Assembly: GCA_019323655.1 (NCBI GenBank) | Contig: JAHWGX010000063.1 | Coordinates: 1-43,026 of the forward strand | Direction of reading: 5' to 3' | Length of the DNA stretch: 43,026 nucleotides | Source: Candidatus Woesearchaeota archaeon | GTDB taxonomy: Archaea; Nanobdellota; Nanobdellia; Woesearchaeales; GW2011-AR4 | Shown: in pieces, positions 6,155-28,692 of the stretch | Layout of the letters: each line of letters begins with the position of its first letter | Numbering within the stretch: the stretch's first letter is position 1 | The notes under the pieces: model-generated | Databases searched by the model: none | The model's input: the letters and a program-made list of their open reading frames with translations, nothing else | What the model was told of the DNA's origin: nothing | Program-made: the position numbers and the translations under genes

Positions 6155-7570
6155 ATGTCAATCTGGAAAACAATTTTGAATAACCTGCCGGAAGTTGAAG
6201 GCCCGTCCCAGAAATTTTTAGCATTTAAGGAAAAATTAAAGTGGACATTGGTTGTTTTGGTTATTTTCTATATCCTTGGTGTGATGCCCTTATTTGGCCT
6301 GGGGCAGAATCAGCTTGAAAGGTTTGAATTTTTTTCTGTTATTTTAGGTGCAGAATTCGGAAGCCTGATAAGCTTAGGCATAGGGCCTATAGTAACTGCT
6401 TCTATTGTCCTGCAGCTGCTTAACGGCTCTGGGATTTTAAAAATGGACCTTACAAGCCCTGAGGGGAAAAAAACTTTCCAGGGAATACAGAAATTACTGG
6501 CAATATTTTTTATAATATTTGAGGCAGCAATCTATGTTTTGATGGGTGGTTTGGCTCCTCCAACCGAACTTGTAGGTACTGCGCTTTATTCACAATTGCA
6601 GCTAATACTTATATTCCAGCTTTTTTTAGGGGGCATCATGATTTTGTTCATGGATGAGGTTGTAAGCAAGTGGGGTTTCGGCTCTGGTGTAGGGTTGTTC
6701 ATAGCTGCTGGTGTCAGCAAAGGCATTTTTGTGCAAGCCTTAAACTGGCTTCCAGGCCCTTCAGGTATTGCTGGTGTAACCTACTCCTCTGGTGCAATTC
6801 CGGCATTATTCCAAAGTCTGACTGCGGGAGACCCTCTTACTGCGGGGATTAAGTTTGCCGCTTTGCTTTTTACAGTTATAGTTTTTGTCATGGTGGTTTA
6901 CACTCAGGCAATGAAAGTAGAGATACCTTTATCATTCGGAATGGTACGAGGCCATGGTGTAAGATGGCCCCTATCCTTTTTTTATACAAGCAATATACCT
7001 GTGATATTGGTTTCTGCTCTTATTGCAAATTTCCAGCTTCTGGGAAGCTTTCTTGATAATAGGGGCATTCCTTTGTTGGGGTCATTCAGCAGCACAGGCC
7101 AGCCTATCAGCGGGTTTATTTTTTGGGTAAGGCCCGTAAACATTGTAGAAATGATTATTGAACAAAAAAGCTTGCTTGTGGGCGCCACTCCTTATTTGCA
7201 AGCCCTTTTTTACATATTATTCCTTATGGTAGGAGCAATGATATTCAGCATTTTTTGGGTGCAAACATCCGGAATGGATGCCAGGAGCCAAGCAAAACAG
7301 ATAATGTCATCTGGATTGCAAATCCCTGGTTTCAGGAGGGATGAGAGGGTTCTTGAAAGGCTACTTAACAGATACATATGGCCACTTACCATAATGGGCG
7401 GCCTGGCAATAGGTTTCCTTGCTGGTTTTGCCGATATAACCGGGACATTAAGCAGCGGCACTGGAATTTTACTGGCAGTTATGATTGTGTACAGGCTTTA
7501 TGAAGAGATTTCAAGACAGCATATGATGGACATGAACCCTATGATGAGGAGATTCATGGGAGGCAGCTAA
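6155..7570 (+). CDS. secY: Protein translocase subunit SecY
   Basis: 471 aa with about 10 hydrophobic segments. It has SecY motifs (LGIGPIVTASIVLQLL, MDEVVSKWGFGSGVGLFIAAG) and sits after L15. Confidence 0.95.
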   Translation: MSIWKTILNNLPEVEGPSQKFLAFKEKLKWTLVVLVIFYILGVMPLFGLGQNQLERFEFFSVILGAEFGSLISLGIGPIVTASIVLQLLNGSGILKMDLTSPEGKKTFQGIQKLLAIFFIIFEAAIYVLMGGLAPPTELVGTALYSQLQLILIFQLFLGGIMILFMDEVVSKWGFGSGVGLFIAAGVSKGIFVQALNWLPGPSGIAGVTYSSGAIPALFQSLTAGDPLTAGIKFAALLFTVIVFVMVVYTQAMKVEIPLSFGMVRGHGVRWPLSFFYTSNIPVILVSALIANFQLLGSFLDNRGIPLLGSFSSTGQPISGFIFWVRPVNIVEMIIEQKSLLVGATPYLQALFYILFLMVGAMIFSIFWVQTSGMDARSQAKQIMSSGLQIPGFRRDERVLERLLNRYIWPLTIMGGLAIGFLAGFADITGTLSSGTGILLAVMIVYRLYEEISRQHMMDMNPMMRRFMGGS

Positions 7571-8320
7571 ATGGTTTTTGAAAATTTGCTAAACCCTATT
7601 TTTTTGCCTTTGCTTAATCTGCCCACTCTCTGGGCTATAGTCCTTCTTTCTTTTTTGATATCCTTAATCGTAACTTTGCTTTATAAGTACACTACTGACC
7701 AAAACCTAATGAAACAGCTAAAGGGGGAGATGAAAGAATTCCAGAAGGAAATCAAGGAGTTAAGGAAAGATCCTGAAAAGGCTATGCAGGTGCAAAAAAA
7801 AGCTATGCAGACAAATATGAAGTACATGACTCATTCCATGAGAAGCACTTTGTACACTTTTATTCCGATAATTATTATTTTCAGCTGGATGAACGCACAT
7901 CTTGCTTACGAGCCTATACTGCCGGGACAGGATTTCACAACAACAGCCCTTTTTGAGGAAAATACCCAGGGCACAATAGAGCTAAGCGTTCCTGAGGGGA
8001 TCACAATCAATGGAGATGCAAAAAAAGATATAGATGACAGCATGGTCAAGTGGATTTTGAGAGGAGAGGAAGGGGAGTATCTTCTTGAGTATCTCTTTGA
8101 CGGGGCAAAGTACAGCAAGGAAGTTTTGATTACTGAAAAAAATATGTACAAGGAGCCTGTAAAAAAAATAAAAGGGAGCAGTATAAAATCAATAGAAATT
8201 GCGCATAACCCTAAAAAACTTCTTAACTTGGTTTGGTGGAAACCGGGATGGCTGGGGACTTATATAATCTTTTCAATAATTTTCAGCATGGTTATAAGAA
8301 AGATAATTAAGGTTTACTGA
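7571..8320 (+). CDS. DUF106/EMC3-TMCO1-like membrane protein (archaeal YidC/Oxa1-superfamily insertase candidate) with inserted soluble domain
   Basis: TM1, then a basic coiled coil (KEFQKEIKELRKDPEKAMQVQKKAMQ), then TM2, as in the Mj0480-type DUF106 family. A ~115-aa non-hydrophobic insert then precedes the last TM. The gene starts directly after the secY stop. Confidence 0.7.
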   Translation: MVFENLLNPIFLPLLNLPTLWAIVLLSFLISLIVTLLYKYTTDQNLMKQLKGEMKEFQKEIKELRKDPEKAMQVQKKAMQTNMKYMTHSMRSTLYTFIPIIIIFSWMNAHLAYEPILPGQDFTTTALFEENTQGTIELSVPEGITINGDAKKDIDDSMVKWILRGEEGEYLLEYLFDGAKYSKEVLITEKNMYKEPVKKIKGSSIKSIEIAHNPKKLLNLVWWKPGWLGTYIIFSIIFSMVIRKIIKVY

Positions 8321-12998: not shown

Positions 12999-13079
12999 TT
13001 TTAATCAGAAGGTATTGTGTTGATTTAAAAATATTGTTGTTTTTAGAATTGAGATTTACTTTTTATTTATAGGGGCCTA

Positions 13080-13595
13080 TTAGTTTCTTCTACTAAAACA
13101 ATCTTCTTTATATCCACACCTTTCACATTTATGTTTCTTAATAGGTTTTGGGCAGTCTCCTAAATTAGTGTAATGCCTCATTTCATGCATTGTTTTTATT
13201 AAAAATAATTTCATACTCTTAGTATAAGGAATGGAGAAAGGTTGTCCTCCCATGTATTGTATAAAACCATATTTTGGCTTTATGCCCTTTACTTCCTCAA
13301 TCAATAAGCAATAAGATATTAGTTGCATGACATGGGAAAAATAGGGTTGGCGGGGTCTTTTTGAATGTTTGATTTCTAGAGGTAATAGCCCATCTTTTGT
13401 GTGAAGAATAAAATCTGGTTTCCCTACTAATCCATATTTGTACGAAAATAACGCCTTTTCAGGTTTTTCTTTATGGTCTGAATAGATTGTTTTGCTTTTG
13501 TATATTGGTTTTGGGACTTTTGTTGATTTTAATAAAACAAATAAAAATAGTAAAATGATACTTGTAACTAATATCATTGCATCTATGATGTTCAT
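13080..13595 (-). CDS. Cas4/RecB-like PD-(D/E)xK nuclease, C-terminal part with N-terminal TM anchor
   Basis: It carries GKPDF (Asp), LEIKHSK (ExK), QLISY (QxxxY) and the C-terminal cysteines CPKPIKKHKCERCGYKEDC, as in the Cas4/DUF83 family. A hydrophobic helix precedes the nuclease core. The ATG at 13595 overlaps the upstream stop (ATGA); the track start at 13610 is also possible. Confidence 0.6.
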   Translation of the reverse strand: MNIIDAMILVTSIILLFLFVLLKSTKVPKPIYKSKTIYSDHKEKPEKALFSYKYGLVGKPDFILHTKDGLLPLEIKHSKRPRQPYFSHVMQLISYCLLIEEVKGIKPKYGFIQYMGGQPFSIPYTKSMKLFLIKTMHEMRHYTNLGDCPKPIKKHKCERCGYKEDCFSRRN

Positions 13596-13816
13596 AATAA
13601 AAACCTGCATACAACAAGAGTTGTAAGAAGGGCAATACTAATTATAATACAAACATAAACAAATCTAGCTTTCGGCTGGTTTTCTGAAACAAGAGTATGG
13701 TGTCTTTTTCCTTCATTAATTACTTGTGTTATTTTAACACCTTTTGTTTTTCCAATCCACCAGCTAACAGGACAGAAAAGATAATTTGCTATCTCACTTG
13801 ATTTGATTGTTCTCAC
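13592..13816 (-). CDS. Cas4-like N-terminal fragment (first Fe-S cysteine helix) with C-terminal TM anchor
   Basis: SEIANYLFCPVSWWI resembles the Cas4 N-terminal Cys-containing helix. It ends in the hydrophobic segment FVYVCIIISIALLTTLVVC. The start is GTG, and the stop overlaps the downstream ATG. Confidence 0.5.
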   Translation of the reverse strand: MRTIKSSEIANYLFCPVSWWIGKTKGVKITQVINEGKRHHTLVSENQPKARFVYVCIIISIALLTTLVVCRFLL

Positions 13817-13998
13817 AGTGAAAGGAAGTAGATTGATTATTAATATTTTGTCTATTATTTGGCTCGCGACTCTAAATAAAGAATATCCATATACACTATT
13901 TATATGCCCTTAATTACAGAGGAACGCCATCCGCAGTATAAGAAACTCCTCTGATGCGGTTCTCAAACATGTTATTTCCTTCAATTTGAAGTACCATG

Positions 13999-14970
13999 TT
14001 ACTTTAAAGATATTTCTTTTTTCTTAACAAATTCCCTCACTTTCTCTGCAACATGCTCTGCACTTAAACCATACTTGTCGTACAGCTCAGCAGGCTTTCC
14101 TGATTCAGCATATTTATCTTCGAGACCAATTCTTTTGAGAATGCAGGGATAATTTTCCGAAAGAACTTCTGCGACAGCGCTTCCAAGCCCTCCGATTATA
14201 TTATGGTCTTCTGCTGTTATGACGCAATTTGTTTTCTTTGCCAAATCTATTACAAGCTCCTTGTCAATCGGCTTTATTGTAGGGGTATTAACAACACAAA
14301 CATCTATTTTTTCTTTATTCAGCAATTCTGATGCTTTTAATGCCTCGTGAACCATGCTGCCTGTGGCAAAAATAACCGCATCTTTTCCTTTTTTCAGAAT
14401 TTCCCCTTTGCCAATTTCAAACCTATAATTTTTATCATGGATTATCGGTATAGGGTTCCTTAGCAGCCTAATGTAAGCCGGCCCGTTGTAATCCATCAAA
14501 GCTATTGTTGCTTTTTCTGCCTCTACTGAATCCGCTGGCTGTATGACAACAAAATTGGGCAAGGTTCTGTAAATAGAGATGTCTTCTATTGCCTGCGCGC
14601 TCTTTCCGTCCTCTCCGGTAAATATGCCGGCGTGGCTTCCGGCTATTTTTACATTTATCCTGTTTCTGGAAATAATATTTCTTGTTAATTCAAAAGCCCT
14701 TTCGGTAAAAATTGCAAAGCTGCTTGCATAAGGTATTTTCCCGCACAACGCAAGGCCGGCAGCTGTGGCGATCATATCCTGCTCTGCAATGCCCATGCTG
14801 AAAAATCTTTCCGGAAACTCTTTTTTGAACAGCTCGCTTCTTGTACTGTCGCTAAGGTCTGCATCCAAAGCTACAACATTCCTATTTTTCCTGCCTGCAG
14901 CTACAAGCCCTGCCCCATAGCCGTCTCTTGTCGCAGCTTTCTCCTTCTTTTCTTCTGCAATAACCGCCAT
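13999..14970 (-). CDS. Transketolase, C-terminal (pyrimidine-binding) subunit
   Basis: TRDGYG..L......N..VV.LDADL..ST plus FFSMGIAEQDM are transketolase Pyr and C-terminal domains. It is split-gene type; a TTG alternative start lies at 14979. Confidence 0.9.
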   Translation of the reverse strand: MAVIAEEKKEKAATRDGYGAGLVAAGRKNRNVVALDADLSDSTRSELFKKEFPERFFSMGIAEQDMIATAAGLALCGKIPYASSFAIFTERAFELTRNIISRNRINVKIAGSHAGIFTGEDGKSAQAIEDISIYRTLPNFVVIQPADSVEAEKATIALMDYNGPAYIRLLRNPIPIIHDKNYRFEIGKGEILKKGKDAVIFATGSMVHEALKASELLNKEKIDVCVVNTPTIKPIDKELVIDLAKKTNCVITAEDHNIIGGLGSAVAEVLSENYPCILKRIGLEDKYAESGKPAELYDKYGLSAEHVAEKVREFVKKKEISLK

Positions 14971-20016: not shown

Positions 20017-20024
20017 TTTATATA
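20017..20024 (+). promoter_or_regulatory. TATA box candidate for the envelope-protein cassette
   Basis: TTTATATA lies 56 nt upstream of the TTG start at 20080. A GGTGA Shine-Dalgarno-like motif at 20069-20073 sits 6 nt before that start. Confidence 0.35.
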
Positions 20025-20079
20025 TTAAACTATTCATTTTTTACAGCAAAGTAAATAAAAATCCAAAAGGTGATAAATC

Positions 20080-21273
20080 TTGAGAAAATCGCAAGGAGGC
20101 GTTAATGCAGCAATTTTAGTTGCTGTTATAGCTGGCTTGATTATTTTATACATACTGTTTCTTCCGGAAGCTGAAAGAAAGGCGCTGCTTGAAAACGAAA
20201 GCGTTGAAGATAAGAATGGCGGTGCTGATGGTGAAGAGGAGGATATATTGCTAAGGGTATTCCCAGGAAGGCTTGACACAGTTGAGGGAATGATAGACAA
20301 AACAATCCCCAATATATTCCTGTTCGAGAAAACTGACGCTGAAGTTCTTGAAAAAATAAACCCTTTTATAGTAAGGAACGGATGGTTTGATGAAAAGAGC
20401 AGGACTGTTGACTTCAGCATAGATGATTTGGAGAATACTGATAATGTTATTCTGTCTTTTAAAGCTAAAAGCCATGAGGGCATTTTGACAATAAAGCTGA
20501 ATGGCGCGATTGTGTTTGAAAATGAGATTGCGTCAGAAAATGCTGAGCCGATAAGATTGGGCAGAAATCTGCTTAAAGATTACAACACTTTTGATTTCAG
20601 CGTTTCTTCTGTCGGGATTAGATTTTGGAAAACAAATGAGTACAGCCTTGAGGATATAAGGGTAATAGGCGATATAACTGACAGGAGCAAGCAGGAAAGC
20701 AGGAACGTCTTTACTTTGACTGCAACAGAGCTGTTTAATATTGAGGAAGCCGACCTGAAATTTGTCCCTTACTGCGGGAATGTGGCCAGTGTTGGAGTCC
20801 TGGATGTTTCTATTAATAATAGGGATGTATATTCGGCTGTCCCTGTTTGCGAGGACCCGACTAAAGTTCCAATACCCTTAGGAATCTTGGATGAGGGGGA
20901 AAACAGGGTGATTTTCAAAACCAACAAAGGCAGCTACAGTGTGGAGCAGATTAAAGTGGAGTTTAATGAGAAAGAAACAAAGGCTGATGTTTATTTTTTT
21001 GAGGTGAATGAAAGCGTAATAGAGGGCATAGAGGACGAGGAAATAGATATTGTTTTGACAATAGAATTTGTTGATGGCGAAAGCAACAAAAGGGCTGACT
21101 TAAACATCAATGACCGGCTGTCTTCAATAGACCAGGAAAAAAGAATTTTCACAAAAACCCTTAATGATGATGACGATCCTGATTATATAGAAGAAGGTAA
21201 TAATTTTATTGAAATAAGGCCTAGAACTAGGCTTGATATTGTTGAGCTGAAAGTAGCAATAGAAGATCGGTAG
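20080..21273 (+). CDS. Uncharacterised N-terminally membrane-anchored, acidic surface protein with three ~100-aa tandem repeats
   Basis: TTG start with a GGTGA RBS. The N-terminus MRKSQGGVNAAILVAVIAGLIILYILFL is a signal anchor. Repeat ends are visible as EYSLEDIRVIGD / SYSVEQIKVEFN / RLDIVELKVAIE. I recognise no family. Confidence 0.6.
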   Translation: MRKSQGGVNAAILVAVIAGLIILYILFLPEAERKALLENESVEDKNGGADGEEEDILLRVFPGRLDTVEGMIDKTIPNIFLFEKTDAEVLEKINPFIVRNGWFDEKSRTVDFSIDDLENTDNVILSFKAKSHEGILTIKLNGAIVFENEIASENAEPIRLGRNLLKDYNTFDFSVSSVGIRFWKTNEYSLEDIRVIGDITDRSKQESRNVFTLTATELFNIEEADLKFVPYCGNVASVGVLDVSINNRDVYSAVPVCEDPTKVPIPLGILDEGENRVIFKTNKGSYSVEQIKVEFNEKETKADVYFFEVNESVIEGIEDEEIDIVLTIEFVDGESNKRADLNINDRLSSIDQEKRIFTKTLNDDDDPDYIEEGNNFIEIRPRTRLDIVELKVAIEDR

Positions 21274-21323
21274 ATAAAGAGGTGGTTTTGGAAAGAATTC
21301 TAAAGTTTTAGTTAGGCAAGAAA

Positions 21324-23810
21324 ATGGCGATTAGAGAGACGTTAGGGCAGGGTTATGAGAAAGTTAGAGATAAAGCGACAGATGGCTACAAAATTCTAAG
21401 GGAAAAAACAGAAAGGATCCCAAAAAAAGCGTACGGCATGGCTGCTGCAGCAGGCGGGGGCCTGATGGTTGGGCTGGCAAGCGCCAAAGACAGAGCCAAA
21501 GAAACTGCAGCCAATGTAAGCGGCGACACTGGCAGCTTATTTGTGATTATCCTTTTTATTATGTACATAGTAGACCTAGCCGATTTTGGAGGGGGCAGGT
21601 ATACTGGTTTTGTTTTTCAGTTGCCTGCGTTTTCATCGACCTATGCATGGAATGTCCTTACTTCTGTGATTTTCGGATTTTTTGTGCTCATATATTTTTT
21701 AGACAAGATAGTAAGAAATGAGTGGGACTGGGTAAGCCGTGAGACTTTTAGTTTTTTTTTGTTTGCTTTTATTATGAGTTTCCTCCTAATTTTTAACCAG
21801 TGGTTTGCAAGCCCTAAAGCAATCTTTCATTTCATATTTATTGTGGTTTTTGGATTCACTTTTGTAAGAAGCTGCGACGGGCCTTTCAGCTCTTACCTTT
21901 ATATATCTACCTTCTTATTCTTAGATTTTTTTGGGTATGCTTACTTTCAGCAGATTGTCGCCTTTAAGTATGTGCCCTTTGCTTACTTATGGATTGCATT
22001 GTATATCTACAGAAAAACGCAAAATCTTCTTTCACTTATTGCAATAGTCTCTATTTTATTTATATTGTTCCTATTTGTTTACAAAGACGCTAATGAGATT
22101 AGCGGGGGGTATTTCTGGGTAAAAAGCACTGATGGCCTGACATTGGAAGAAACTATGGGTGATTTGCGCCAAGGAATAGGAAGCTTTATTGATGCGTGGC
22201 TTGGGACTCTGGAAAGGCAGATGCAATATGCAATTACCGGGAAGGTTGAGGAAAACAAATATGAGCCTCTGGGCGTTTATCTGGTAGAGCTACAGCCGTC
22301 GCAGCCTGTATATTTCCAGGATGAGAATGTGATTATATTAGGAACAGTAGAGGCAAGAACATTAAATGACCCTATCAAGATAGAGATGGGGTGCAGAATC
22401 AAGGGAAAGAAAAAGGAGGGAGATAAAGAGGCTGACGAAGTGGATACTGAGAAATTTTCCGTGTACACTTCTGAGCAACAGCCTTTTGCATGCAAATTCG
22501 ACAGGTGTTGCAAGCCTAACGAATGTACTAAAGAAGTACTTTCTAACTGCGTGTTAAAGGAGGGAACTAACACAATAATAGCTTATGCGGACTTTAATTT
22601 TGAAACTTTATCGTATCTAAAGACTTATTTTATGAGCCGGGAAAGAATAAGGGCAATGGTCAGGGAAAATATAGACCCATTTAATGAGTTTGGAATTACA
22701 GATAAAAATCCTATTGCTGTTTATACCAACGGCCCTGTTGAGATAGGGATGTCAGTAACAACTTCTTTAACTGGAGCGTCCTTGGTTGGCGTCAGCATAG
22801 CAGAAGGTGCAGAAGATGTATATGCCGGCTATCCTACTTTAAGCATTTCTTTAAGGAACAGAGAAGGCTGGGAGGGCAAGATAAAAAATATAAGCTCATT
22901 CTTGCTGTTTTTTCCGAAAGGCATTGAGCTGGAGAATCCTGAAGAAGACTGCTATGGCTGGGTATTTAAAAATGTTGAAGATTCTAAATATTCCAAAGCT
23001 TGCAAAGAAAAATTTTGCGGAAAGCTGCAGGAAGGAGAATGTTCAGAAGTATGCGACACTATCCAGGGGTATTATTTGGATGTAGAGAATAAGGAAGTCC
23101 AGAAAAAATTAGATGATTTTGAAAAATTCAGCTTTTTCAGGTGCAGGCTCAAGCCCAATAAGGATGCTTTAGAGGGCACTCCAATAACAACAAAAATCTT
23201 TGCAGTGGCTGCAGAATATAACTACACCTTGGAGAAATCCGTTGTTGCAAGTGTACAAAAGATTCCGGAAGAGGATATTGTGGAAGCCGGAGAGGGCATG
23301 GAAGGTGAATGCCCAAGCTACGCGTGCCTTGAATACGAAGGTGATTGGTGGTCGGTGACAGGCAATGTTGACAGTTCTTATGAGGGAGATAAATGGAAAG
23401 TCAATGAATGTTATTATAGTAAAAATGAATATTGTGAATCAAAAAATTGTGGAAAATCTGGTAAATGTATAGAAGAGGAAAGTGGGGAGGTTTGTGGAGA
23501 TGGAGTTTGTGGTTCTGGAGAAACTTGTGGTTTAATTGATATCGAAAAGTGTTCTCATACTTCATGTACCTCGCCAAAATGTTATTATGGCTGCCAAGAA
23601 ACCCCATTGCCAGCTGGGAGCACTAATGATGAATGCAAAGATGGTCGGGCTTGTGATGGAGAAGGCAATTGCATATCCCAAGAAAGAATCTGTATGGGAG
23701 AATGTAAAGAGGGATGTTATTGTGGGCCTAGTGTCTGTGAAGTGGCAAGACTCAACACTAACTGTGAGGAGTCTGGAAAAACTTGTTGCATTCCGAAAGA
23801 TAGAGAATAA
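21324..23810 (+). CDS. Uncharacterised polytopic membrane protein with large ectodomain and Cys-rich C-terminal tail
   Basis: 828 aa. Residues ~70-270 contain about 7 hydrophobic helices. The following ectodomain shares motifs with the next two genes. The last 166 aa contain 24 cysteines. Confidence 0.65.
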   Translation: MAIRETLGQGYEKVRDKATDGYKILREKTERIPKKAYGMAAAAGGGLMVGLASAKDRAKETAANVSGDTGSLFVIILFIMYIVDLADFGGGRYTGFVFQLPAFSSTYAWNVLTSVIFGFFVLIYFLDKIVRNEWDWVSRETFSFFLFAFIMSFLLIFNQWFASPKAIFHFIFIVVFGFTFVRSCDGPFSSYLYISTFLFLDFFGYAYFQQIVAFKYVPFAYLWIALYIYRKTQNLLSLIAIVSILFILFLFVYKDANEISGGYFWVKSTDGLTLEETMGDLRQGIGSFIDAWLGTLERQMQYAITGKVEENKYEPLGVYLVELQPSQPVYFQDENVIILGTVEARTLNDPIKIEMGCRIKGKKKEGDKEADEVDTEKFSVYTSEQQPFACKFDRCCKPNECTKEVLSNCVLKEGTNTIIAYADFNFETLSYLKTYFMSRERIRAMVRENIDPFNEFGITDKNPIAVYTNGPVEIGMSVTTSLTGASLVGVSIAEGAEDVYAGYPTLSISLRNREGWEGKIKNISSFLLFFPKGIELENPEEDCYGWVFKNVEDSKYSKACKEKFCGKLQEGECSEVCDTIQGYYLDVENKEVQKKLDDFEKFSFFRCRLKPNKDALEGTPITTKIFAVAAEYNYTLEKSVVASVQKIPEEDIVEAGEGMEGECPSYACLEYEGDWWSVTGNVDSSYEGDKWKVNECYYSKNEYCESKNCGKSGKCIEEESGEVCGDGVCGSGETCGLIDIEKCSHTSCTSPKCYYGCQETPLPAGSTNDECKDGRACDGEGNCISQERICMGECKEGCYCGPSVCEVARLNTNCEESGKTCCIPKDRE

Positions 23811-23813
23811 AAA

Positions 23814-24797
23814 ATGAACAAGAAAATAATTTTTGGCTTTATTGCAATAGGATTGTTTTTTATTGCGGGGTGCAATGTCAATGTTGGTGGCGGCAACAAC
23901 CCTAAAACAGATGCTGATGTAAAGAAAGGGACAGGAGGGCTTACAATGGAGTTTGTGAAAAATGCTCCGCCAATAAGTGTTTTTGAATATACTGTTTTTC
24001 CTATAGCGCTGAACTTAAAGAATGCAGGGGCGTTTGATATAGGCGATGAAATTGAAGGCACTAGTAAAAAAGGGAAGCTTGTTCTAGGGCTTGAAAAAAA
24101 TTATATGGATGTTGCGGAATTAGGAGAGGGAAAACAAGATTTCGAGATTAATGGCAAGTCCATTTATAACCTAAATGGGGATGAAGAGCTAATAACTATA
24201 AACGCAAAAGCAAAAAGCATCGGGGCGCAAAGCGAAACCCGTTCTGTGAATATCCTCGCGACTGCCTGCTATCCCTATAAGACTTTTTTCGGGAGCTCTG
24301 TATGCATTGACCCTGATGTTTACGGCATGAGGAGAGGGGCAAAAGCGTGCAGCATTGCGGATTTGGGATTTGACAAGGGGCAGGGAGCTCCTGTTGCAAT
24401 AACAAGAATAGAATCCAGAATGCTTATGGAAGCAGATAAAAATGTAATAAAGCCCAACTTCGTGATTTATATTGAGAATAGGGGAAACGGGGAGGTTATA
24501 AGCCTTAATAAGATAGATGATGCTTGTTCGCAAGAACCTTTGAGCTATGAGGACTTTAACACATTGATAATAAAAGCATCATTAGCCGGAAACAAGCTGA
24601 AATGCAATATCGTTGACGGAGCCCAGCAAACGACAATAAAGCTCAGAGGTAAAAAGGACAGGGTTATGTGCACTTTAGATGACGGCGTTGACATGAACCT
24701 TGATGCTTACACAGCACCGTTGGATATAGAGCTATCTTACGGCTATACTACCACCATATCCAAAAATATAATCATAGAGAGGCTTTTAACTTACTAA
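23814..24797 (+). CDS. Uncharacterised lipoprotein (paralog 1)
   Basis: MNKKIIFGFIAIGLFFIAGC has a lipobox (IAGC). It has two CARDB-like strands (LNLKNAGAFD, IYIENRGNGEV). The gene starts 3 nt after the upstream stop. Confidence 0.65.
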   Translation: MNKKIIFGFIAIGLFFIAGCNVNVGGGNNPKTDADVKKGTGGLTMEFVKNAPPISVFEYTVFPIALNLKNAGAFDIGDEIEGTSKKGKLVLGLEKNYMDVAELGEGKQDFEINGKSIYNLNGDEELITINAKAKSIGAQSETRSVNILATACYPYKTFFGSSVCIDPDVYGMRRGAKACSIADLGFDKGQGAPVAITRIESRMLMEADKNVIKPNFVIYIENRGNGEVISLNKIDDACSQEPLSYEDFNTLIIKASLAGNKLKCNIVDGAQQTTIKLRGKKDRVMCTLDDGVDMNLDAYTAPLDIELSYGYTTTISKNIIIERLLTY

Positions 24798-24810
24798 CCG
24801 GATTAAGAAA

Positions 24811-25806
24811 ATGAAAAAAATTAAAGTGAGTTTCGCGATTTTACTTGCCTTTTTGCTGATTTTTTCTGCTGCTGGGTGCATAAAAAAAACTGGCGGCAGT
24901 GTTGACTACAAGGCTGAAACAGATGGCCTGAAAATAAAATTTCTTGAAAGAACACTGAAAGACCGGTATGTAATAGGCGAAAGAGATATTTACCCCATGA
25001 TTGTAGAGCTGGAAGTGGAGAATAAAGGTGGGTTCCCAAAAAAAGAGGACTTGCGCAGCGGCAGCAGGTGGAGCAACTTAATGATGCCTCAGATTAAGCT
25101 TAGCGGATTTGACAAGAATATAATTACCGATGTGAAAACCAAAGACAGGTTAGTCTGGGATTCTCTTTTAGGAGTGGACTATTCAAACCCTGAGGGAAGC
25201 CTTGACACGATTTTATTTTCCGCGTGGATTCAAAGTAAAAAGATAACAGACAGCTATGAGCCGAATATAATGGCTACTATCTGCTATCCTTATGCGACAA
25301 AGGCAGAGCCGGAGGCTTGTATTGACCCGCGGCCATCCGAAGAGGATGAGCATAAAGTCTGCAGTATTGGAACTAAAACATTAACAAGCCAGGGTGCTCC
25401 TGTTGCAATAACAAAGATTGAGCAGGAAGCCTCTTCAGACAAAATGCAGTTTAAGATTCACATAAAGAACATAGGAAACGGGGAAGTGATAAAATTTGGA
25501 TCTTTATGGAAATGCAGCTCTCAGGAAGCGAGGCTGGAAAAAGATGATTTTGACAGGATAAACCTGGCAAGCGTGGAAATTGGCTACGATAAGCCTGTAA
25601 AGCTTGACTGCAAGCCTTTTGCCGACGGGAGTAATAACTTAATAAGGCTCTATGAAGGGGAAGGTGTAATAATATGCTCCTTTGACATGTCTGACTCAGA
25701 TGTTAAATATGAATATACAACGCCGCTCAAAATTGTTCTGGAATACGGCTACAGCACCACAATTTCGAAAAATATAAAAATATTAAAGATGGTTGAGGTT
25801 GATTAA
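24811..25806 (+). CDS. Uncharacterised lipoprotein (paralog 2)
   Basis: MKKIKVSFAILLAFLLIFSAAGC has a lipobox (AAGC). It is collinear with the previous gene: ATICYPYATKAEPEACIDP, QGAPVAITKIEQE, YGYSTTISKNIKI. Confidence 0.65.
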   Translation: MKKIKVSFAILLAFLLIFSAAGCIKKTGGSVDYKAETDGLKIKFLERTLKDRYVIGERDIYPMIVELEVENKGGFPKKEDLRSGSRWSNLMMPQIKLSGFDKNIITDVKTKDRLVWDSLLGVDYSNPEGSLDTILFSAWIQSKKITDSYEPNIMATICYPYATKAEPEACIDPRPSEEDEHKVCSIGTKTLTSQGAPVAITKIEQEASSDKMQFKIHIKNIGNGEVIKFGSLWKCSSQEARLEKDDFDRINLASVEIGYDKPVKLDCKPFADGSNNLIRLYEGEGVIICSFDMSDSDVKYEYTTPLKIVLEYGYSTTISKNIKILKMVEVD

Positions 25807-25846
25807 GAATAATTTTTATATAAAAAACAAATAAAAGGTGGCAAAA

Positions 25847-26722
25847 ATGGGAAAAAAACAGGCTTTTGGTTGGTTGGCTGTAGTAATGATGTTTGTTTTG
25901 GCTGCAGGTTTTGTTAGTGCTCTGTGTCCTGATTACGATTGTCAATTTCAGAAAAGTGGTGTTTTCTCGTATTCCAAGTATGACAGTTCTTACCCCCACA
26001 ATTTTACTGACCCAGTGAGGGCAGGCACTTGTATTAGAGCACAATACAACTACTGGAAACTTTGCGGATACGAGGAGGAAACATGTGATAGAACTACCGG
26101 GAAATGTGTGGAAGAGGATGACAGCAACGGGGGAAGCACAACCTGCCCAGATAGATGCTATGGTCCAGATAGGTGGGGCAATAACTTTGTAGTGTCCATG
26201 AATAAACTGCCCTCTGGCAACGATTGTTCAGTCCCCTTTGAGGGTTGCACCTATACTAACTGTCTTAAGTGCGAATCGGCAGAATGTGCAAATGCCAAAT
26301 GTGCAGAAGGAAGGGGCAGCACTGGCGGGGACACGGGTGATGAGGGTGTAGGTCTAAGCGCAACTTTAGGATCATTTTCTACGCCTAAATCCTACAGGAG
26401 CGCCGGGGAAACAGCAGAATTGAGCGTTAATGTGCGAAATACCGGAAATGCTGCATTTGATGAAACTACAAAAGTATGGTTCTTTGTTAAGAAGCCGGGC
26501 AGCACAGATTATGAAGCTGTTTCAAGCAAATCTGTCAGCGGTCTTATGTACACTGGACAGGCAAGCATTAAGGATGTTTATTATTACTGGCAGATTCCAA
26601 AAGATGCTGTAGGGGGCAAGTATGAATTCGTTGCCCAGGTATTTGCAGTTAAAAAAAATGGTGAATACTATCCCCTTAGTAACACTCCCGCATTGACTAT
26701 TAATGTTGAGGGAAGTGACTGA
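25847..26722 (+). CDS. Uncharacterised secreted Cys-rich protein with C-terminal CARDB/Ig-like domain
   Basis: The ATG at 25847 is preceded by AAGGTGG. It has a signal peptide (...LAAGFVSA), 14 Cys in the first ~130 mature residues, and a C-terminal LSVNVRNTGNAAFD... beta-sandwich-like region. Confidence 0.6.
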   Translation: MGKKQAFGWLAVVMMFVLAAGFVSALCPDYDCQFQKSGVFSYSKYDSSYPHNFTDPVRAGTCIRAQYNYWKLCGYEEETCDRTTGKCVEEDDSNGGSTTCPDRCYGPDRWGNNFVVSMNKLPSGNDCSVPFEGCTYTNCLKCESAECANAKCAEGRGSTGGDTGDEGVGLSATLGSFSTPKSYRSAGETAELSVNVRNTGNAAFDETTKVWFFVKKPGSTDYEAVSSKSVSGLMYTGQASIKDVYYYWQIPKDAVGGKYEFVAQVFAVKKNGEYYPLSNTPALTINVEGSD

Positions 26723-26736
26723 GTATTGGCTTAGGA

Positions 26737-28130
26737 CAGACATCCCGAAAGTAGCTAATTTTATTAATTCTCAAATCCAGAGACAGTAATAAGGAGTTGA
26801 TTTTGGCATTATATCAATTTGAAATCTCTTAATTTCTCATTTATTGCTTGTGGTGGCAACTCCTTAAAAAATTAAGGAGGGGATTACCACCACAAACAAA
26901 CAAATCGACAAAAGTACTCAAGAGTTTGCCCATAAAAATATTTCTATTGCCCCTAACGTAGTATTTAGCATTCCTATGATTTTGCTTGTTTTAGTGTGTG
27001 CAGCCCAAGAGGGGCATAGTGTCAATGCAACAGCATCAGCACCTGATGCTGACAGTGTCTTTTACAGAATTGACACGTCAATTCGAAAAATGCAAGACCA
27101 GTTTTGGGGCCAGACTTTAAAACTTCTACGTCGGAAAAAGAAGAAGCTAGCTAAAGTGAAATGCTACATAACAGTAGACGAAACTTATGATTCATACACT
27201 GGAAACCTCCATAAAAAGCCAGTTAGAGAATTAACAAGAGAGCAAAAAACAATAAGGCAGTATATTCATGAATACCAGCCAAAGAAAGGAGATACTGGTT
27301 CTTTCAAGTATTTGGTTTTTGCTCTTGTGTACGGCAGGAAGAAAATGGTTCTCCGTGCTAAAGCTTTAAGAAGAAAAGAAGAGTACTGGTCGCTTGTAGT
27401 TAGAACACTTAAAGAATTATCATCAGAGCTGAAGTTTGAATGCGCCCTTATGGATAGGGGATTCTATGTTGCAGAGCTTATAGATCAGCTACAAAAGGAA
27501 AGTATTCCTTTTGTTGTCCGCGCATGCATTTGCGATTACATGAAAATAATCCTCGGCATTTATCGGGAATGGAAAATTTATGAGTATGATGTTGCAGGCT
27601 GGGCTAAAACAAAACTTATTCTTGGAAGGGATTTCAGAGGTTATCCGTGGGGATTTGTTACAAACCTTTCATTTAACCATCTAGAAGATATACGTTTCTT
27701 ATACAAGAAACGATGGAATATCGAGAATATTTTCAAAGCTACAGATGGGATACAGCTGAAAGTTGCAACATCTAACCACATCACAAGAATGTTTGCAGTT
27801 TGCTTGTCTTTTTTGATCTATAACGCATGGCAAAATAAGAATATGAAACCAACTCTGCTTGACTTTATAAAGAAAATTTTTCAGGTTCTGTTTGCATTTA
27901 TAAGGAAAATCAGTCCTTACAGAGATAAGTTCAAACTCAACTTGCCTTTATGGGATTTTTTGGAGAAATGAAGTAGAAGGCAGAATAAATTTTTTCATGT
28001 TACATGCGCTTTAATTTAATTCGCGATTGAGGTTAGGGGTATATTCTTCTCTAATGCGATTTCAATTCTTAGTGAGCAGATAAAATCTGCTCAAATTTGT
28101 GTTAGGGTTTGGTCAATTTCGGAATCTCTG
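26737..28130. mobile_element. Candidate IS element (DDE transposase flanked by imperfect terminal inverted repeats)
   Basis: CAGACATCCCGAAAGT (26737-26752) matches the reverse complement of 28115-28130 (CAGAGATTCCGAAATT) at 13/16 positions, and the pair brackets the transposase ORF. I found no target-site duplication, so the boundaries are tentative. Confidence 0.3.
26976..27971 (+). CDS. IS4/IS5-superfamily DDE transposase
   Basis: A DDE triad is visible: ITVDETY, ALMDRGFY, YKKRWNIENIFK (Y-x2-R-x3-E signature). The N-terminal DNA-binding region looks short. The frame is open upstream to 26868 without a canonical start. Confidence 0.75.
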   Translation: MILLVLVCAAQEGHSVNATASAPDADSVFYRIDTSIRKMQDQFWGQTLKLLRRKKKKLAKVKCYITVDETYDSYTGNLHKKPVRELTREQKTIRQYIHEYQPKKGDTGSFKYLVFALVYGRKKMVLRAKALRRKEEYWSLVVRTLKELSSELKFECALMDRGFYVAELIDQLQKESIPFVVRACICDYMKIILGIYREWKIYEYDVAGWAKTKLILGRDFRGYPWGFVTNLSFNHLEDIRFLYKKRWNIENIFKATDGIQLKVATSNHITRMFAVCLSFLIYNAWQNKNMKPTLLDFIKKIFQVLFAFIRKISPYRDKFKLNLPLWDFLEK

Positions 28131-28155
28131 AATACAAGCAATTTACCTTCGTTCT

Positions 28156-28692
28156 ATGCCTCAACACAGAATGAACAGACAATTAATTGCTCAGAGGGTA
28201 AGAAAACCATTAGAGAGTCTTGTTAGTGATCTGGAAAAGATATATACACATGCCGTAAAGGAAGGGCTATATCACAGTCTGAGTCCACATGAAATTTATC
28301 AAAATATTGGCAAAGGCCTCATTAACTACCATCTTTCTGAGGAATATGGATTCTTCTCTGATTTGAGAGAAGACTTTGGGCGTCTGGGTTGGAGTGTTGC
28401 GTATTTAACAGAGCGGTATAAAGATGGCGGACTCGCTCTTGAAGAGCTTGCATGGTTAGGTTTGAAGAGGACAGAATACTTATGGGAAAACCAAAAAGAT
28501 CCAAACAGCGAATTGCCAGAAAAAGACATTCTTGAGATTTCGGACAATCTTAAATCTAAACCCCCAATTAAAGATTGTAATGAAAATGAATTAAGGATTT
28601 TATTGGATAGTTATTTGGGGGGTAAAGCAGATTACCTTACATATAAATATCCGTATGGAACCAGGGAGACCTTAACAAAAGCATTAATATAA
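28156..28692 (+). CDS. Hypothetical protein (no recognisable family)
   Basis: 178-aa ORF beginning 25 nt after the candidate IS end. The composition is non-repetitive and I recognise no motifs. Confidence 0.45.
   Translation: MPQHRMNRQLIAQRVRKPLESLVSDLEKIYTHAVKEGLYHSLSPHEIYQNIGKGLINYHLSEEYGFFSDLREDFGRLGWSVAYLTERYKDGGLALEELAWLGLKRTEYLWENQKDPNSELPEKDILEISDNLKSKPPIKDCNENELRILLDSYLGGKADYLTYKYPYGTRETLTKALI

Follow-up and report, generated by a model that had tools for sequence, protein, structure and literature searches.

A conserved gene cassette of Woesearchaeota for a putative membrane-anchored, outward-facing protein assembly

Among uncultured archaea, Woesearchaeota rank with the most widespread; to our knowledge, neither their hosts nor their mode of attachment is known. 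Large SLT proteins of these archaea have been proposed as tools with which they attach to bacteria, or attack and prey on them (PMC8204110, PMC9723730, PMC12352652). Here we describe a cassette of five closely packed genes, g1 to g5, at positions 20080-26722 of a 43,026-nt stretch of DNA from Candidatus Woesearchaeota archaeon (assembly GCA_019323655.1, contig JAHWGX010000063.1, forward strand), which we call the window. An earlier note on this DNA had proposed the five genes as a novel, outward-facing cell-surface system, and this proposal stands, given the absence of family matches and the strong co-occurrence of the genes in other genomes. The genes g1-g4 are the local copy of an operon for outward-facing membrane proteins that is conserved across the Woesearchaeota/Nanoarchaeota relatives recovered; we put forward, tentatively, that the products form a membrane-anchored assembly, which would serve the lineage as a contact and cell-wall-breaching scaffold.

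Conservation and layout of the cassette

Of the GTDB species representatives scanned, 64 genomes carry g1. Mapping with hidden Markov models recovered the gene order g1-g2-lipC-lipD-(lipE), in which lipC and lipD are g3 and g4 of the window, in about 50 of the 64 species-representative loci, wherever the contig was long enough, and the cassette was present in every relative recovered. The earlier note had taken all five genes as a unit. This holds for g1-g4, the order of which is kept in these ~50 Woesearchaeota/Nanoarchaeota genomes, but not for g5, which lies outside the conserved part; the usual fifth gene is lipE, a further paralog of lipC and lipD. As lipE is also absent from three close relatives, the core cassette comprises four genes.

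The cassette is usually flanked by a divergent pelota gene on one side and by convergent RFC-small/PRC genes on the other, and its neighbours in the fetched loci are housekeeping genes (pelota, acetyl-CoA synthetase, RFC, tRNA synthetases). Since the order of the cassette is also kept in a divergent genome where pelota no longer adjoins it, the genes appear to be linked by function rather than by inherited synteny alone. The carriers are tiny, probably host-dependent Woesearchaeota archaea. A provirus or mobile-element origin was ruled out by the synteny and by the lack of viral relatives: PHROGs gave nothing significant, a Foldseek search of BFVD with the g2 model gave no match at E<=1e-3, and g1 had no relative in IMG/VR.

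None of the five proteins gave a match above threshold in Pfam, NCBIfam, PHROGs or PADLOC scans, and searches of PDB sequences with single sequences and with profiles of 6-89 sequences returned no meaningful match and no E value <0.004, g1 included. The homologs of g1 (n = 590, all hypothetical proteins from Woesearchaeota/Nanoarchaeota), g2 (n = 89) and g3 (n = 136) are all unnamed proteins from Woesearchaeota, Nanoarchaeota or Nanobdellota metagenomes. With the Foldseek searches of the g2 and g3 models described below, this agrees with the earlier statement that the proteins belong to no nameable family, as there is no confident profile or structure match to a characterised one. No description of the operon was found in the literature, and both the operon and the families of the cassette appear to be undescribed.

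The members of the cassette are conserved to different degrees. The mean identity of orthologs to the window proteins is 63% for pelota, 55% for g1, 41% for lipC, 37% for lipD and 32% for g2, so that g1 is the best-conserved cassette member, near the level of pelota.

In the window, all five open reading frames lie on the + strand, and the intergenic gaps g1/g2, g2/g3, g3/g4 and g4/g5 measure 50, 3, 13 and 31 nt, which confirms the coordinates, the co-directional packing and the 3-50 nt gaps reported earlier. GC skew is positive over the cassette, as in other + strand gene blocks of the window. Pelota and g1 diverge from a common 147-nt spacer that contains, by direct sequence reading, a candidate TATA-like box, TTTATATATTAAA (20017-20029, + strand), ~50 nt upstream of g1. 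The Shine-Dalgarno (SD)-like sequence GGTGAT (20069-20074, + strand) ends 5 nt before the TTG start of g1; thus, the TATA candidate at 20017 and the GGTG motifs that had been noticed before genes 1 and 5 are present in the sequence. The TTG start is backed by homologs that begin with M-R-K-A-Q-G-G. Every cassette product has an export or anchor signal, as judged by sequence reading, the g2 model and lipobox counts.

Membrane platform, tip modules and surface subunits

The g2 gene (21324-23810, + strand) encodes a putative membrane platform of 828 aa. Its AlphaFold model, computed from the 89 homologs, has a predicted local distance difference test score (pLDDT) >90 for approximately residues 65-650 and displays, in this order, a charged cytoplasmic N-terminal helix, seven transmembrane (TM) helices (residues 69-259), a 37-residue stalk helix (274-310) and a two-lobed beta-rich ectodomain (317-645), followed by a tail that is unpredictable (660-828; pLDDT <50). 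A positive-inside count from the sequence orients the protein N-in, C-out. The seven TM helices, the large ectodomain and the 24-Cys tail that had been read from the sequence are thus confirmed by the model and by composition.

The conserved ectodomain (residues 312-648; 22257-23267, + strand), delimited by the model and by conservation, is the best-conserved part of the g2 family. A peptidoglycan hydrolase forms the C-terminal end of 28 of the 45 long g2 homologs (SLT in 18, GH73 glucosaminidase in five, phage tail lysozyme in two, SLT_2 in two and M23 in one); other long homologs end in beta/gamma-crystallin or fn3. In eight homologs that were checked, the hydrolase domains pass Pfam cut-offs and are found at residues ~675-1090, beyond the ectodomain. 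The presence of four unrelated murein-cleaving folds at a single position of g2 indicates that cutting bacterial peptidoglycan is a selected activity of that position.

The same position is occupied in the window g2 by the Cys-rich tail (residues 650-828; 23271-23807, + strand), which was defined by composition and BLAST and has 24 Cys within the last 180 residues of the protein. This tail had no BLAST match in any of the collected g2 homologs and is unique to this genome, and no sequence common to the tail, g5 and the extensions of neighbouring genomes was found. None of the window's g1-g5 contains a peptidoglycan-hydrolase domain (SLT, GH73, M23 or phage lysozyme).

The TM domain of g2 (residues 65-262; 21516-22109, + strand), bounded according to the model, conservation and the positive-inside count, has only three highly conserved polar residues, D84, H169 and D201 (codons 21573-21575, 21828-21830 and 21924-21926, + strand), which conservation and the model together place near the outer leaflet. 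Several identities were considered for this domain and rejected. A SWEET-like transporter was ruled out, as there is no internal 3+1+3 repeat and the SemiSWEET profile match (E 0.66) is not significant. A prepilin peptidase acting on g1 was ruled out because the GxGD motif is absent and the conserved D/H/D residues face outward. The PGAP names 'MreD' and 'EpsG family', given to two g2 homologs, were not reproduced by Pfam at E<=0.01.

The two genes downstream of g2, g3 (lipC; 23814-24797, + strand, 327 aa) and g4 (lipD; 24811-25806, + strand, 331 aa), had been called lipobox lipoproteins in the earlier note. Their lipoboxes, IAGC in g3 and AAGC (relaxed) in g4, are kept across orthologs: the strict pattern, [LVI][ASTVI][GAS]C at the end of an N-terminal signal peptide, was found in 29 of 43 lipC, 32 of 43 lipD and 32 of 37 lipE sequences (67-86%), and a relaxed one in 88-95%. 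Both proteins thus fit archaeal, AliA-dependent lipobox lipoproteins, and their lipidation is predicted; AliA, the archaeal lipoprotein lipidation factor, has been reported from DPANN (PMC12462473). The two are paralogs (31% identity, BLASTP E 2e-31), and profile comparison makes lipC, lipD and lipE a clear paralogous family, with hhalign E values from 5e-71 (lipC vs lipD) to 4e-36.

The AlphaFold model of g3 (from 74 sequences, pLDDT 91.7) is all-beta and comprises the lipobox signal followed by two immunoglobulin (Ig)-like beta-sandwich domains. In a Foldseek search of the PDB it matched integrin calf/thigh domains, complement MG domains and transglutaminase barrels, domain by domain only. 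For g2 and g3 together, the matches were to tandem Ig-like domains (also ClfB and RbmA) at whole-chain TM-scores of 0.1-0.23; the g2 model matched only generic Ig-like domains in the PDB and BFVD, with TM-scores <=0.12. An identity of g3 and g4 as ABC substrate-binding lipoproteins was rejected: the g3 fold is all-beta and Ig-like, there is no match to a substrate-binding protein family of Pfam or NCBIfam, and the sole PDB periplasmic-binding profile match has E=1.

A co-linear alignment (hhalign E 4e-4, 131 columns) links the C-terminal domain of lipC with the C-terminal lobe of the g2 ectodomain. In the g2 and g3 models alike, each of the two lobes is closed by an unusually long strand of ~24 residues. 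Because of this alignment and these common strands, the g2 ectodomain is probably a fourth, distant paralog of the lipoprotein family, an assignment that we make with moderate confidence. In close relatives of the window, the lipoprotein paralogs also carry extra modules: the loci L074 (10736-14228) and L008 (10788-16994) provide a 31-Cys insertion in lipD, a 240-aa extension of lipE, an 822-aa lipD with fn3 and fn3-like tails on g2. Given this accretion of modules on lipD, lipE and g2, the Ig-like parts behave as a scaffold with exchangeable outward modules.

The first gene, g1 (20080-21273, + strand), encodes a putative N-terminally anchored surface protein of 397 aa. The earlier description of g1 as signal-anchored and acidic is borne out (81 D+E vs 45 K+R), while the three repeats that had been seen in it are related to each other only weakly (hhalign E 9e-5 and 2e-3); we refer to them as three beta modules. 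The anchor (residues 1-34; 20080-20181, + strand) was characterised by alignment and by position counts over 143 sequences, picked by a regular expression that demanded the Q of the motif. It consists of the pattern M-[RK]-K-[AG]-Q-G-G-x-N-A-A, a nearly invariant TM helix (NAAxLVAxIAGLIILYIxFLP), P29 and an invariant juxtamembrane R33. The alignment shows that the Q is missing in the most divergent homologs, and residues 1-34 may serve as a plain N-in signal anchor or, alternatively, as a class III (prepilin-type) signal. The invariance of the helix and R33 (>140 homologs), taken with D84, H169 and D201 of g2, may reflect a specific intramembrane docking site or an active site at the outer face.

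As to the beta modules, sub-threshold matches to the carbohydrate-binding module (CBM)-like family PF14683 were obtained for 10 of 24 g1 homologs (best E 7e-4). Other jelly-roll matches, also below threshold, were to the sialidase N-terminal domain (in three homologs) and to CBM_35, BetaGal_ABD2 and BcsB (once each).

The rearranged 3' end and the surrounding chromosome

The last gene of the cassette in the window, g5 (25838-26722, + strand, 294 aa as listed), encodes a protein with a Cys-rich N-terminal domain and a C-terminal CARDB domain. The spacer between g4 and g5 contains the TATA-like TTTTTATATAAAAA (25812-25826) and GGTGG 5 nt before an ATG at 25847, at which the public gene call P0330 (291 aa) also starts. 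Since spacer sequence and database gene call agree, g5 probably starts at ATG 25847, 9 nt later than listed, with the 'GTG' being part of its SD sequence, and g5 may be transcribed from its own promoter. The 14 Cys and the CARDB end that the earlier note had ascribed to g5 are thus upheld, with a start that more likely lies at this ATG.

The direct CARDB (PF07705) score of g5 is 15.9 bits (E 0.015), under the Pfam cut-off of 22.7. Residues ~183-270 of g5, however, match regions that are CARDB in P0332-P0338 with E values down to 5e-21, and by this transitive homology the C-terminal end is assigned as a CARDB domain. For the Cys-rich N-terminal domain, a single partial homolog (P0331) was found among 1.84 billion representative proteins, all other matches covering only residues ~183-270, and no g5 homolog was found in 71 loci. 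On these sequence comparisons, g5 is classed as a near-orphan, lineage-specific secreted add-on outside the conserved cassette.

Downstream of g5 lie an ISH3/IS4-type DDE transposase (26976-27971) and an orphan 178-aa open reading frame (28156-28692) that had no matches. Positions 26723-28692 of the window thereby replace the lipE and convergent RFC-small/PRC-barrel/Cas4-like genes of the relatives. No lipE or RFC remnants were found in the window; as the block is absent without remnant, the cassette has undergone rearrangement at its 3' end. Within the window, GC content is lowest in the kilobase 13001-14000 (0.31). This kilobase contains a short Cas4-domain open reading frame (13080-13610, minus strand, 176 aa), which may be a relocated or truncated copy of the ~281-aa Cas4/PDDEXK gene that relatives have downstream of the cassette. 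Elsewhere in the window, a YidC/Oxa1-type insertase gene (EMC3/TMCO1-like, E 6e-18; 7571-8320) directly follows SecY (6155-7570) and ends a ribosomal-protein block; from this context, the window is core chromosome.

Proposed role, rival explanations and described systems

By these findings, the seven TM helices of g2 form a platform in the membrane, with the Ig-like ectodomain raised on the long stalk helix. The paralogs lipC, lipD and, where present, lipE share an architecture of two Ig-like domains and are predicted to be anchored beside g2 via their lipobox cysteines, while g1 is held by its near-invariant TM helix and carries three beta modules in which the CBM-like signals are weak. At its distal end g2 has a swappable module, which is most often a peptidoglycan-cleaving enzyme; lipD or lipE has such a module in some genomes. 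From this we propose the following model. The cassette proteins would form one complex in which the g1 helix and R33 dock on D84, H169 and D201 of g2; glycan would be bound by g1, while the wall of a bacterial partner would meet the variable tip, kept in place by the Ig-like parts. In many genomes the tip would cut this wall, in agreement with the use that has been proposed for the large SLT proteins (PMC8204110, PMC9723730, PMC12352652). The tip in this genome would consist of the disulfide-rich g2 tail and the secreted Cys-rich/CARDB g5, which suggests binding rather than hydrolysis. The host interaction proposed in the earlier note thus gains indirect support from the hydrolase tails, so that the argument now draws on these tips and not on topology alone; the function itself is one that we infer.

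Several points weigh against a contact and wall-breaching scaffold. Complex formation, localisation and activity of the cassette proteins are all inferred, and the proposed g1-g2 docking is read solely from conservation patterns. In none of the fetched loci is the operon linked to an ATPase or another energy source, or to genes for pili or secretion, and every CBM-like match of the g1 homologs falls under the Pfam thresholds. The shortest g2 homologs (490-515 aa) have no tail at all; because of these forms and the hydrolase-free g2 of the window, wall cleavage cannot be the core function. Furthermore, the degree of conservation of g1 is that of a housekeeping protein. Proteins of host contact are not usually so conserved, and g1 in this respect looks more like a core structural or functional part than like an adhesin that evolves fast. 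A stronger form of the proposal is doubtful in our estimation. It would make the operon encode a lineage-defining host-contact organelle of Woesearchaeota, a hetero-oligomeric stalk with four paralogous Ig-like subunits, a glycan-binding pilin-like protein and a 7-TM base, in which an exchangeable tip (murein hydrolases, crystallin-like, fn3 or Cys-rich) sets the bacterial partner; this would be a new inter-domain contact apparatus, of which bacteria, other archaea and viruses have no homolog.

The conservation of the cassette is also what an envelope-building, S-layer-like lattice would predict, and we treat this as a serious rival, if on balance an unlikely one. The main structural coat of the cell would then be a tiling of Ig-like lipoproteins, g2 ectodomains and g1, with hydrolases and Cys-rich modules as secondary decorations. 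Such a lattice would account for an operon that adjoins housekeeping genes and occurs in all relatives recovered, and for a g1 whose conservation comes close to that of pelota; it could be built with pseudo-symmetry from the several paralogous Ig-like subunits that are anchored in the membrane, and it would need no energy source. Known archaeal S-layer proteins, however, are fast-evolving, and in most cases there are only one or two of them, in the form of large glycoproteins. The cassette proteins match none of the solved ones: there was no S-layer match in Pfam, NCBIfam or PDB sequences, and no S-layer chain among the 50 best Foldseek PDB matches listed for g2 or g3. A simple anchor would not require a 7-TM domain with a conserved D/H/D site, and the fact that one position has repeatedly gained a murein hydrolase, of four different kinds, points to action on the wall of another cell. 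The same hydrolase tips would also suit a machine that scavenges glycan or murein, a single-membrane Sus-like analogue in which g1 and the lipoproteins capture wall fragments, the g2 tip cuts them and the 7-TM domain takes up or senses the products. The CBM-like signals of g1 and the outward-facing conserved polar triad in the membrane domain of g2 are in keeping with it, and Woesearchaeota have been predicted to recycle cell debris (PMC9723730). We nevertheless rate this explanation as distinctly improbable: the very weak SemiSWEET match of the g2 profile that could be cited in its favour is insignificant, g2 lacks the 3+1+3 internal repeat and matches no transporter family, the lipoproteins are unlike substrate-binding proteins, and many members, that of the window included, have no hydrolase.

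The N-terminus of g1 admits another explanation, namely that g1 is a class III-signal protein cleaved after K-A, leaving an N-terminal Gln, and is assembled or presented with the membrane domain of g2 in the manner of bindosome-type surface proteins. Nearly all g1 homologs retain [RK]-K-[AG]-Q ahead of a stretch of ~20 hydrophobic residues, and a helix so extremely conserved suggests that it packs specifically against another helix. Substrates of the EppA-type archaeal prepilin peptidase reportedly (Szabo et al. 2007) have the pattern [KR][GA]|Q, which the g1 motif would fit. A pilin-like display or processing system is nonetheless very improbable in our estimation: the Q is lost in the most divergent homologs, the residues after it do not fit the QxSxE of DUF361, and no pilus ATPase, PilC-like platform or A24 prepilin peptidase was found in the window or within 10 kb in 74 loci; moreover, the conserved polar residues of g2 face outward, away from the cytoplasmic cleavage site. 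We retain, with the reservations above, the contact and wall-breaching scaffold as our working explanation.

On this explanation, the cassette would supply defined marker genes and antigens for locating the contact site, for predicting the type of partner from the tip module and for testing whether bacteria are targeted. If the operon instead encodes a cell coat, it would identify the envelope proteins of this order.

Among described systems, the CARDB/Ig-like adhesins (PF07705; MSCRAMM-type) share individual domains with the cassette, in that the C-terminus of g5 is CARDB and the models of g2 and g3 are similar to tandem Ig-like adhesin domains (ClfB, RbmA, integrin calf, complement MG); this likeness is at the level of domains only, and the CARDB score of g5 is below the Pfam cut-off. 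The Sus-like surface glycan-binding proteins of Bacteroidota (SusE/F-type) offer an analogy in architecture: lipid-anchored Ig-like proteins, a CBM-type binder and a surface-tethered glycan hydrolase are encoded together. Unlike these, the cassette is anchored through an archaeal lipobox, and it has neither a sequence or specific fold match to them nor a TonB-dependent transporter or an outer membrane. Gram-positive conjugation and type IV secretion systems (VirB6-like proteins with VirB1-like SLT/CHAP proteins, PrgK/TcpG) likewise combine a polytopic membrane protein with a tethered peptidoglycan hydrolase that opens the wall locally. In contrast to them, the cassette is chromosomal, syntenic and not mobile, gives no Pfam matches, and is linked to no VirB4/VirD4 ATPase, relaxase or other gene of such systems in any locus.

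Close counterparts, too, are the published large SLT proteins (fam00969, 2021; Vigneron et al. 2022; Strock et al. 2025; PMC8204110, PMC9723730, PMC12352652), which many g2 homologs resemble by description, being large, extracellular peptidoglycan hydrolases of the same lineages. These papers describe the hydrolase domain but not its carrier, whereas here the hydrolase is an optional tip, absent from the g2 copy of the window, on a conserved 7-TM/Ig-like platform that is always encoded within an operon of four to five genes. The isolated 'large lytic transglycosylase' proteins of earlier work are thereby placed at the tip of a conserved membrane platform, within a fixed operon.

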